A stretch of 64,000 nucleotides of DNA, from the NCBI RefSeq assembly GCF_036507355.1, contig NZ_AP027877.1, one strand, 5' to 3'. Shown one piece after another: positions 63,407 through 64,000 of this stretch. Made by a program: the position numbers. Every line of letters begins with the position of its first letter. Within the stretch, counting starts at the first letter, position 1. Source of the DNA: Escherichia coli (lineage in GTDB: Bacteria > Pseudomonadota > Gammaproteobacteria > Enterobacterales > Enterobacteriaceae).

Positions 63407-64000
63407 CTAAACTTGAATAAATTCAATGGCTTTATTGGATATCCGCCGAAAAATGAAACGATGGACACCGAAGCCATGGGTGATTAAAGAGGCCGGATTG
63501 TAATAATTGTACACTCCGGAGTCAATTCTCTTTCCTTATTTACCGCGCTTTTCCGCACCTTTTCGCAGGGAAAATGTACGGCCTCACACCAGTGAAAACC
63601 AGCATGGTGCGCCGGGTGGAGGATTATACGGGCTGACGGGTAAAGCGCAAGGATCGTCCTGGATCTTTATTAGATCGATTAAGCCAATTTTTGTCTATGG
63701 TCATTAAATTTTCCAATATGCGGCGTAAATCGTGCCCGCCTCGCGGCAGGATCGTTTACACTTAGCGAGTTCTGGATCATCCTGTGGATAAATCGGGAAA
63801 ATCTGTGAGAAACAGAAGATCTCTTGCGCAGTTTAGGCTATGATCCGCGGTCCCGATCGTTTTGCAGGATCTTGATCGGGCATATAACCGCAGACAGCGG
63901 TTCGTGCGTCACCCTCAAGCAGGGTCTTTTCGACGTACGTCAACAATCATGAATGTTTCAGCCTTAGTCATTATCGACTTTTGTTCGAGTGGAGTCCGCC

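Follow-up and report, generated by a model that had tools for sequence, protein, structure and literature searches.

We analysed a stretch of 64,000 nucleotides from Escherichia coli (contig NZ_AP027877.1 of RefSeq assembly GCF_036507355.1), referred to here as the window. An earlier note, made from the sequence alone, had assigned positions 63760–64000, at the very end of the window, to the promoter region of dnaA because of a DnaA box and a cluster of GATC sites. Our analysis indicates that this stretch is almost certainly the dnaA regulatory region, which is divergent from rpmH and runs from promoter p1 through the last base ahead of the start codon, and that the dnaA leader likely contains a conserved RNA structure made up of two hairpins, H1 and H2. 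The flagged promoter region is already known, as it is the self-regulated E. coli dnaA promoter of textbooks; the leader structure is a modest lead and the part of the locus that could matter.

The assignment of the locus was supported by comparison with annotated genomes. The E. coli intergenic region between rpmH and dnaA corresponds to window positions 63395–64000 (606 bases), of which 599 are identical to K-12 MG1655 in an ungapped alignment. Within the flagged span, 238 of 241 bases are as in K-12, and the last 221 bases (63780–64000) equal the K-12 sequence exactly, through base −1 of the dnaA GTG. The annotated dnaA coding sequence of K-12, strain 510016, and strain Combat11I9 opens with GTGTCACTTTCG at the base directly after the aligned end; alignment to these three annotated E. 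coli genomes thus places position 64000 at base −1 of dnaA, in exact agreement with the earlier proposal on how the window end relates to the start codon, namely that it corresponds to the bases directly preceding it. The dnaA GTG would then occupy 64001–64003, directly beyond the window. Matches to the intergenic stretch were found in 5424 of the 5426 complete E. coli genomes, 5405 of which carry at least 80% of it; the 5536 genome matches were all chromosomal, with a median of one per genome and a top identity of 99.7%. Several RefSeq records end on the same base as the window match because they are rotated to begin at dnaA, and the window probably represents the final 64 kb of a record rotated in this way, which would explain its exact stop.

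In K-12, the region contains two promoters, of which p2 is about threefold stronger, with a consensus DnaA box between them (Hansen and Atlung, PMC5835720; Menikpurage et al., PMC8203912), p1 being placed upstream of the box (PMC8203912). Further sites that require DnaA–ATP include AGATCT, and p2 has one GATC in its −35 element and one in its −10 element, with a CCGCGG discriminator just upstream of +1 (PMC5835720, PMC8203912). Beyond the p2 start, three closely spaced GATC sites follow (Iuliani et al., Sci Adv 2024, doi 10.1126/sciadv.ado5398), and the gene has a weak GGAG ribosome-binding site and a GUG start (PMC5835720). We located the following elements in the window.

63652–63877: GATC cluster, ten Dam sites (63652, 63662, 63673, 63750, 63775, 63818, 63842, 63855, 63868, and 63874).
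63757–63762, plus strand: putative −10 element TACACT of dnaAp1, a hexamer kept from Escherichia to Enterobacter.
63783–63791, minus strand: DnaA box 1, perfect consensus TTATCCACA (TGTGGATAA on the plus strand), between p1 and p2.
63804–63812, minus strand: second DnaA-box-like site, TGTGAGAAA (TTTCTCACA on the minus strand), with one mismatch to TTWTNCACA.
63817–63822, plus strand: AGATCT, an ATP–DnaA-specific site that includes the GATC of the dnaAp2 −35 region (roles from PMC8203912 and PMC5835720).
63839–63850, plus strand: dnaAp2 −10 element TATGAT (63839–63844; its GATC at 63842–63845), followed by the CCGCGG discriminator (63845–63850).
63978–64000, plus strand: translation initiation region TTGTTCGAGTGGAGTCCGCC with the Shine-Dalgarno sequence GGAG at 63991–63994, nearly invariant in 103 species.

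The p2 elements described in the literature were all present and the same as in K-12, namely the −35 GATC, the −10 GATC, CCGCGG, and the three GATC sites after +1. From the positions of the −10 element and the discriminator, we infer that p2 transcription starts (+1) near 63851. Judging from its position, TACACT at 63757–63762 is the probable −10 element of dnaAp1, and the site at 63804–63812 is probably the "box 2" of the text of PMC5835720. The proposal of a dnaA promoter region with a DnaA box and a GATC cluster was therefore borne out by the perfect box at 63783–63791, the cluster, and the near-identity to K-12. The limits given for it held only in part: promoter signals are present in 63760–64000, but both p1 and the GATC cluster begin upstream of 63760, and since the cluster starts at 63652, the flagged start cuts it in two.

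We considered whether the box and the GATC sites in the flagged span could have arisen by chance in an ordinary intergenic region and lack regulatory meaning. Six GATC sites lie inside the span (63775, 63818, 63842, 63855, 63868, and 63874) against about 1.2 expected; a window-wide maximum of at least six per 240 bp occurred in 78% of random placements, making six sites alone unexceptional, and DnaA boxes with one mismatch are frequent, with 30 across the window. The full cluster, however, argues against chance, as ten GATC sites in 226 bp were equalled in 0.1% of random placements (background, one site per 204 bp in the window), and so does the fact that the flagged span differs from the experimentally studied K-12 region by three bases only. 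The cluster is the second densest in the window, after that of oriC (12 in 240 bp). Perfect DnaA 9-mers numbered four in the 64 kb compared with 0.46 expected, a count reached in none of 100 shuffles; besides box 1, there are two at oriC (16138 and 16318) and one in the tnaB region.

The chance explanation is already refuted by conservation across species, and we give it virtually no weight. The species sample consisted of one genome per species, retrieved using a degenerate pattern for DnaA residues 6–16 that was blind to the promoter; 120 loci were returned, and 111 Enterobacterales species with 330 bp upstream were analysed. In all 111, dnaA starts with GTG. A perfect box in the same orientation was found 159–320 bp upstream of dnaA in 108 of the 111 species, and two GATC sites at a spacing of exactly 24 bp (as at 63818 and 63842), starting 33–40 nucleotides after the box, were found in 100. 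The upstream 330 bp contained 6.3 GATC sites on average, compared with 1.5 in the remainder of the same loci. A conservation profile revealed four blocks conserved to at least 95%, CCTGTGGATAA, CTGTG, GATCT, and TATGATC, giving a footprint of box 1, box 2, the GATCT of the p2 −35 region, and the p2 −10 region; CTGTG lies 10–14 nucleotides after box 1 in 98 of 109 sequences, and TATGATC occurs in 104 of 109 species. The four blocks and the recurring architecture indicate that the dnaA promoter architecture is under selection across the order, and conservation of this kind is what the model of autoregulation and sequestration predicts.

Several points weigh against the assignment of the stretch to the dnaA regulatory region. 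The gene assignment is putative insofar as it rests on homology, with no dnaA codon inside the window. The positions given for p1 and p2 are likewise presumptive, being transferred from the K-12 experiments. A sigma-70 consensus scan of 63200–64000 called no plus-strand site, and hence neither p1 nor p2, yielding only a promoter on the rpmH side and a weak terminator-like site. This fits the description of p1 and p2 as weak by consensus; p2 combines a good −10 element, TATGAT, with a −35 element that matches the consensus poorly. Finally, the nearest complete RefSeq E. coli genome is 98.0% identical over 39001–64000, and the 5426 complete genomes, of which 1096 cover at least 80% of 39001–64000 in one place, do not include the source strain. 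The source strain seems to belong to an E. coli lineage that is unrepresented among complete genomes.

Through its near-identity to K-12, the mechanism established for that strain can be transferred to the window. In K-12, autoregulation and sequestration by SeqA have been linked to the DnaA box and the GATC cluster (PMC5835720, PMC8203912, Sci Adv 2024 doi 10.1126/sciadv.ado5398), and it is for K-12 only that repression of both promoters by DnaA and sequestration of the hemimethylated region by SeqA are known experimentally (PMC5835720, PMC8203912). RNA polymerase would initiate at a weak p1 and at a roughly threefold stronger p2, with DnaA occupying, between the promoters, the perfect box and its weaker neighbour. 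At high levels of DnaA–ATP, DnaA would spread onto ATP-specific sites, including the AGATCT over the p2 −35 region, and both promoters would be repressed, so that DnaA synthesis would be self-limiting. A replication fork arriving from oriC (about 47.6 kb away in the window) would leave the GATC sites hemimethylated, and SeqA binding would shut the promoters for part of the cell cycle; with its function taken from the literature, the cluster at 63652–63877 would be the SeqA sequestration target of the dnaA promoter. In addition, the GC-rich CCGCGG discriminator would make p2 sensitive to guanosine tetraphosphate (ppGpp). All known dnaA control elements are intact in the source strain, and its replication control looks ordinary.

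The region can be compared with two other DnaA-controlled sites of E. coli. Like the dnaA region, oriC has perfect DnaA boxes and a GATC density about ten times the background, and sequestration after replication has been reported for the two regions alike (PMC5835720). They differ in that oriC, as an origin, has an unwinding element and numerous boxes of low affinity, whereas the dnaA region has a promoter pair, one perfect box, and a shorter sequestration. The mioC promoter is likewise repressed by DnaA–ATP via one consensus box and neighbouring imperfect boxes (PMC5835720, PMC4585315), but it is reported to be unsequestered and to titrate more DnaA (PMC5835720).

Paired substitutions downstream of p2 were first seen when relatives of the window sequence were aligned. 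In the E. coli leader, the minimum free energy fold consists of three hairpins, H0, H1, and H2, of which H1 and H2 are supported by covariation; together with the sequence after H2, they occupy the following positions.

63852–63880, plus strand: leader hairpin H0 (CCCGAUCG...UGAUCGGG) of the minimum free energy fold, containing the three GATC sites downstream of +1.
63886–63902, plus strand: leader hairpin H1 (AACCGC / GCGGUU).
63903–63939, plus strand: leader hairpin H2 (CGUGCGUC-ACCCU / AGGGU-GACGUACG).
63940–63952, plus strand: conserved sequence UCAACAAUCAUGA after H2.

We examined these pairings in two alignments made without structural information. Among 103 leaders aligned using MAFFT, 75.8% of the cells pair, compared with 32–46% when the 3′ partners were slid by 1–3 columns, and the covariation score was 0.223 compared with 0.046–0.106 in the slid controls and was reached by none of 500 shuffles. 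The second alignment contained 35 sequences, about one per genus, covering H1 and H2. They were chosen using a pattern that recognizes H1-like arms, so that H1 is partly conditioned by the choice and H2 is not, except for its last base. Here, H1 was 99.5% paired, the basal stem of H2 96.8%, and all cells 93.6%, with 25–46% paired in the slid controls; changes on both sides were found at 11 of 18 pairs, and the score was again reached by none of 500 shuffles. Compensatory changes include AACCGC/GCGGUU to AAUUGC/GCAAUU in H1 and, in H2, one pair that is CG in 22 sequences, UA in 8, and GC in 2 and another that is UA in 14 and CG in 11. Applied to the full alignment of 103 sequences and 494 columns, RNAalifold kept only three pairs, all of H1, since that alignment is too gappy, and pairs were therefore counted explicitly instead.

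A covariance model built from the 35 sequences gave one match each in 67 of 100 sources (0.97 Mb, both strands), including 38 loci that had not been used in building it; in the window, it matched only 63883–63946, with 71.2 bits. Among the sources that gave no match are genera of Morganellaceae, Hafniaceae, Pectobacteriaceae, and Budviciaceae. As for H0, in 62 species the segment from +1 to H1 folds into a hairpin whose start is 0–4 nucleotides from the assumed 5′ end (mean z score of −2.2 relative to shuffles).

The dyads of H0, H1, and H2 might instead act as DNA, either as palindromic protein sites or as a by-product of the self-complementarity of GATC, rather than as folded RNA. GATC is self-complementary, and clustered sites accordingly provide hairpin-like symmetry for free, a consideration that applies to H0; the fold of the single E. 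coli leader is also no more stable than shuffles (z = −0.69), and the few pairs kept by RNAalifold point in the same direction. H1 and the base of H2, however, contain no GATC and are nearly always paired in the genus-level sequences, eleven pairs have changed on both sides, and pairing collapses in the slid controls. In addition, the dnaA sense strand shows many G–U pairs (22 of 35 sequences at one pair, for instance); on the other strand or as DNA, these would be C–A mismatches, which assigns the structure to the mRNA rather than to the opposite strand or duplex DNA. Even the 5′ hairpin persists where the GATC sites have been lost, as in a Klebsiella-group species. We therefore regard a role as DNA as unlikely and favour a folded leader RNA.

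On this evidence, the leader of about 150 nucleotides would carry three conserved hairpins ahead of a weak Shine-Dalgarno sequence and a GUG start. More tentatively, the leader of Enterobacteriaceae, Erwiniaceae, and Yersiniaceae, with its three-part structure followed by UCAAMAAUCAUGA, could be an undescribed post-transcriptional control element for DnaA synthesis, a possibility that we rate well below even. Candidate roles are mRNA stability, protein binding, and access to the weak GGAG/GUG start; H0 is a candidate for a 5′ hairpin that stabilizes the p2 transcript, and H1–H2 for a protein-binding or insulating module before the weak start. That the GGAUC motifs are CsrA sites is speculation. 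Discussion of how E. coli controls DnaA synthesis centres almost wholly on transcription, in terms of autorepression, sequestration, and ppGpp. A covarying leader RNA before a weak start would, if true, place this central cell-cycle regulator under post-transcriptional control as well, and one and the same DNA would both serve SeqA sequestration and specify the 5′ hairpin of the dnaA mRNA.

Pairing of UCAACAA (63940) with UUGUUCG (63978), which would occlude the start, was considered separately and rejected because species with UCAAAAA keep UUGUUCG, without covariation.

No Rfam 15 family matched the leader, either in a search of the whole window at gathering scores, which returned nothing but 16S ribosomal RNA (rRNA) and STnc410, or in a search of 63200–64000 at E values up to 1. 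Reviews and literature searches yielded no description of an E. coli dnaA leader structure, the search results being confined to studies of other bacteria; as the older literature was covered incompletely, a prior description may exist. Long dnaA leaders with post-transcriptional control are also found in Caulobacter crescentus, Sinorhizobium meliloti, and Bacillus subtilis (PMC4489657, PMC4414408, PMC12112137). Their sequences and mechanisms (nutrient-dependent translation, small RNA, and antisense RNA) are unrelated to those considered here, and the likeness is functional at most. Within E. coli, H0 may be compared with the stabilizing stem-loops at the 5′ termini of mRNAs such as ompA, which Emory, Bouvet and Belasco reportedly described in 1992. 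A stem-loop of that type has at most about 2–4 unpaired nucleotides before it; the first paired base of H0 would lie 0–4 nucleotides from the inferred p2 start in the 62 species, and the structure is kept across genera; p1 transcripts would carry H0 internally.

Next, we examined the only difference from K-12 within the flagged span, a change of AAG to TCA at 63777–63779 that converts GGAAAGTCC to GGATCATCC. The K-12 dnaA promoter region has the same neighbours (rpmH, ysdD, and dnaA) and the same order of elements as the window; it contains nine GATC sites in 225 bp (PMC5835720), compared with ten in the window, the additional one being produced by this change.

63775–63778: tenth GATC, created by TCA at 63777–63779, 8 bp upstream of box 1.

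Short queries able to seed on one allele only were used to count the alleles, and the TCA allele was found in 1461 of the 5426 complete E. coli genomes (27%, including O157:H7) and the AAG allele of K-12 in 3955 (73%). The 9-mer GGATCATCC is identical in four Citrobacter species, whereas Salmonella enterica subsp. diarizonae has the K-12 form and E. albertii one that is nearly identical to it.

The extra GATC could be adaptive in this lineage, either by strengthening sequestration by SeqA or by changing how DnaA binds at box 1. It sits 8 bp from the box and breaks up the 68 bp that separate the sites at 63750 and 63818, a GATC 7–11 nucleotides upstream of the box recurs in 20 of 108 species, and both forms of the three-base block are shared across genera (TCA with Citrobacter, AAG with Salmonella and E. 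albertii). Against this, the alignment columns directly upstream of the box are unconserved across species, both alleles are common in E. coli, and the loss of several promoter GATC sites leaves initiation synchrony intact, according to literature cited in Sci Adv 2024 (doi 10.1126/sciadv.ado5398). An adaptive role is thus quite improbable, and since the columns are unconserved and removal of GATC sites is reported to leave synchrony intact, we take the TCA allele to be a common natural variant that is most likely neutral.

Import of the TCA allele on a long tract from Citrobacter was rejected, as the flanks resemble K-12 (about 98%) far more than Citrobacter (79%). Upstream of the flagged span, the window differs from K-12 at four single bases (63581, 63595, 63608, and 63637), at the first three of which it agrees with E. 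albertii and not with K-12.

On the rpmH side of the intergenic region, three further features were identified.

63254–63394, minus strand: rpmH (ribosomal protein L34), an open reading frame of 46 amino acids at the place annotated as rpmH in three E. coli genomes; it forms the left edge of the intergenic region.
63497–63525, minus strand: promoter-like site TTGACT–17 nucleotides–TACAAT, found by the consensus scan with 10 of 12 matches.
63624–63704, minus strand: ysdD, a small-protein gene of 26 amino acids, identical to K-12 YsdD at 25 of 26 residues (R for H) and overlapping three GATC sites.

From its position, the promoter-like site would belong to rpmH, and ysdD is annotated at the equivalent relative position in K-12 and Combat11I9.

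The flagged region also serves as an anchor, defining the window as an oriC-proximal segment that reaches from rrsC to the base before dnaA. Positions 1–322, on the minus strand, correspond to the first 319 positions of 16S rRNA and are collinear with K-12 rrsC, and the other end is dnaA base −1, which confirms the proposed span from rrnC to dnaA. The earlier note had further expected a shorter span without three insertions. The distance from the equivalent rrsC point to dnaA base −1 is indeed shorter in K-12, at 58,400 bp, leaving an excess of 5.6 kb in the window; of the three segments, however, only two turned out to be insertions, the third being a replacement of K-12 DNA by a shorter block. 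The first insertion, at 30291–35721 (5.4 kb), replaces 206 bp between glmS and pstS in K-12 (net +5.2 kb) and is the operon for long polar fimbriae, lpfABCD-O113, with up to 99.8% identity to other E. coli. The second, at 56917–59537 (2.6 kb), replaces 151 bp between tnaC and mnmE (net +2.5 kb) and carries an open reading frame of 725 amino acids (57211–59388), which relatives annotate as a type III effector toxin of the ShET2/EspL2 family. At 40395–47824, 7.4 kb replaces the 9.4-kb bglGFBH-yieLK-cbrBC block of K-12 and is 2.0 kb shorter; relatives annotate two type III effector genes and a pentapeptide-repeat gene here. The second effector gene is split in the window into overlapping open reading frames (45255–46982 and 46897–47682), compared with a single gene of 802 amino acids in Combat11I9, likely because of a frameshift. 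The lpf, effector, and ShET2/EspL2 islands are already annotated in many E. coli genomes.

A smaller difference lies at about 38794–38801, where about 92 bp of the K-12 pstA–pstB spacer is absent, as it is in Combat11I9; the missing stretch is probably a repetitive extragenic element of K-12. The origin oriC, at 16152–16383, is 99.6% identical to that of K-12 and lies about 47.6 kb from dnaA, compared with 42 kb in K-12. The fourth perfect DnaA box, TTATCCACA, is on the plus strand at 54595–54603, in a region collinear with K-12 tnaB. Finally, a full-length match to the enterobacterial small RNA STnc410 (188 bits) was found at 26686–26843 on the minus strand, in what is, by collinearity with K-12, the glmU–atpC spacer.
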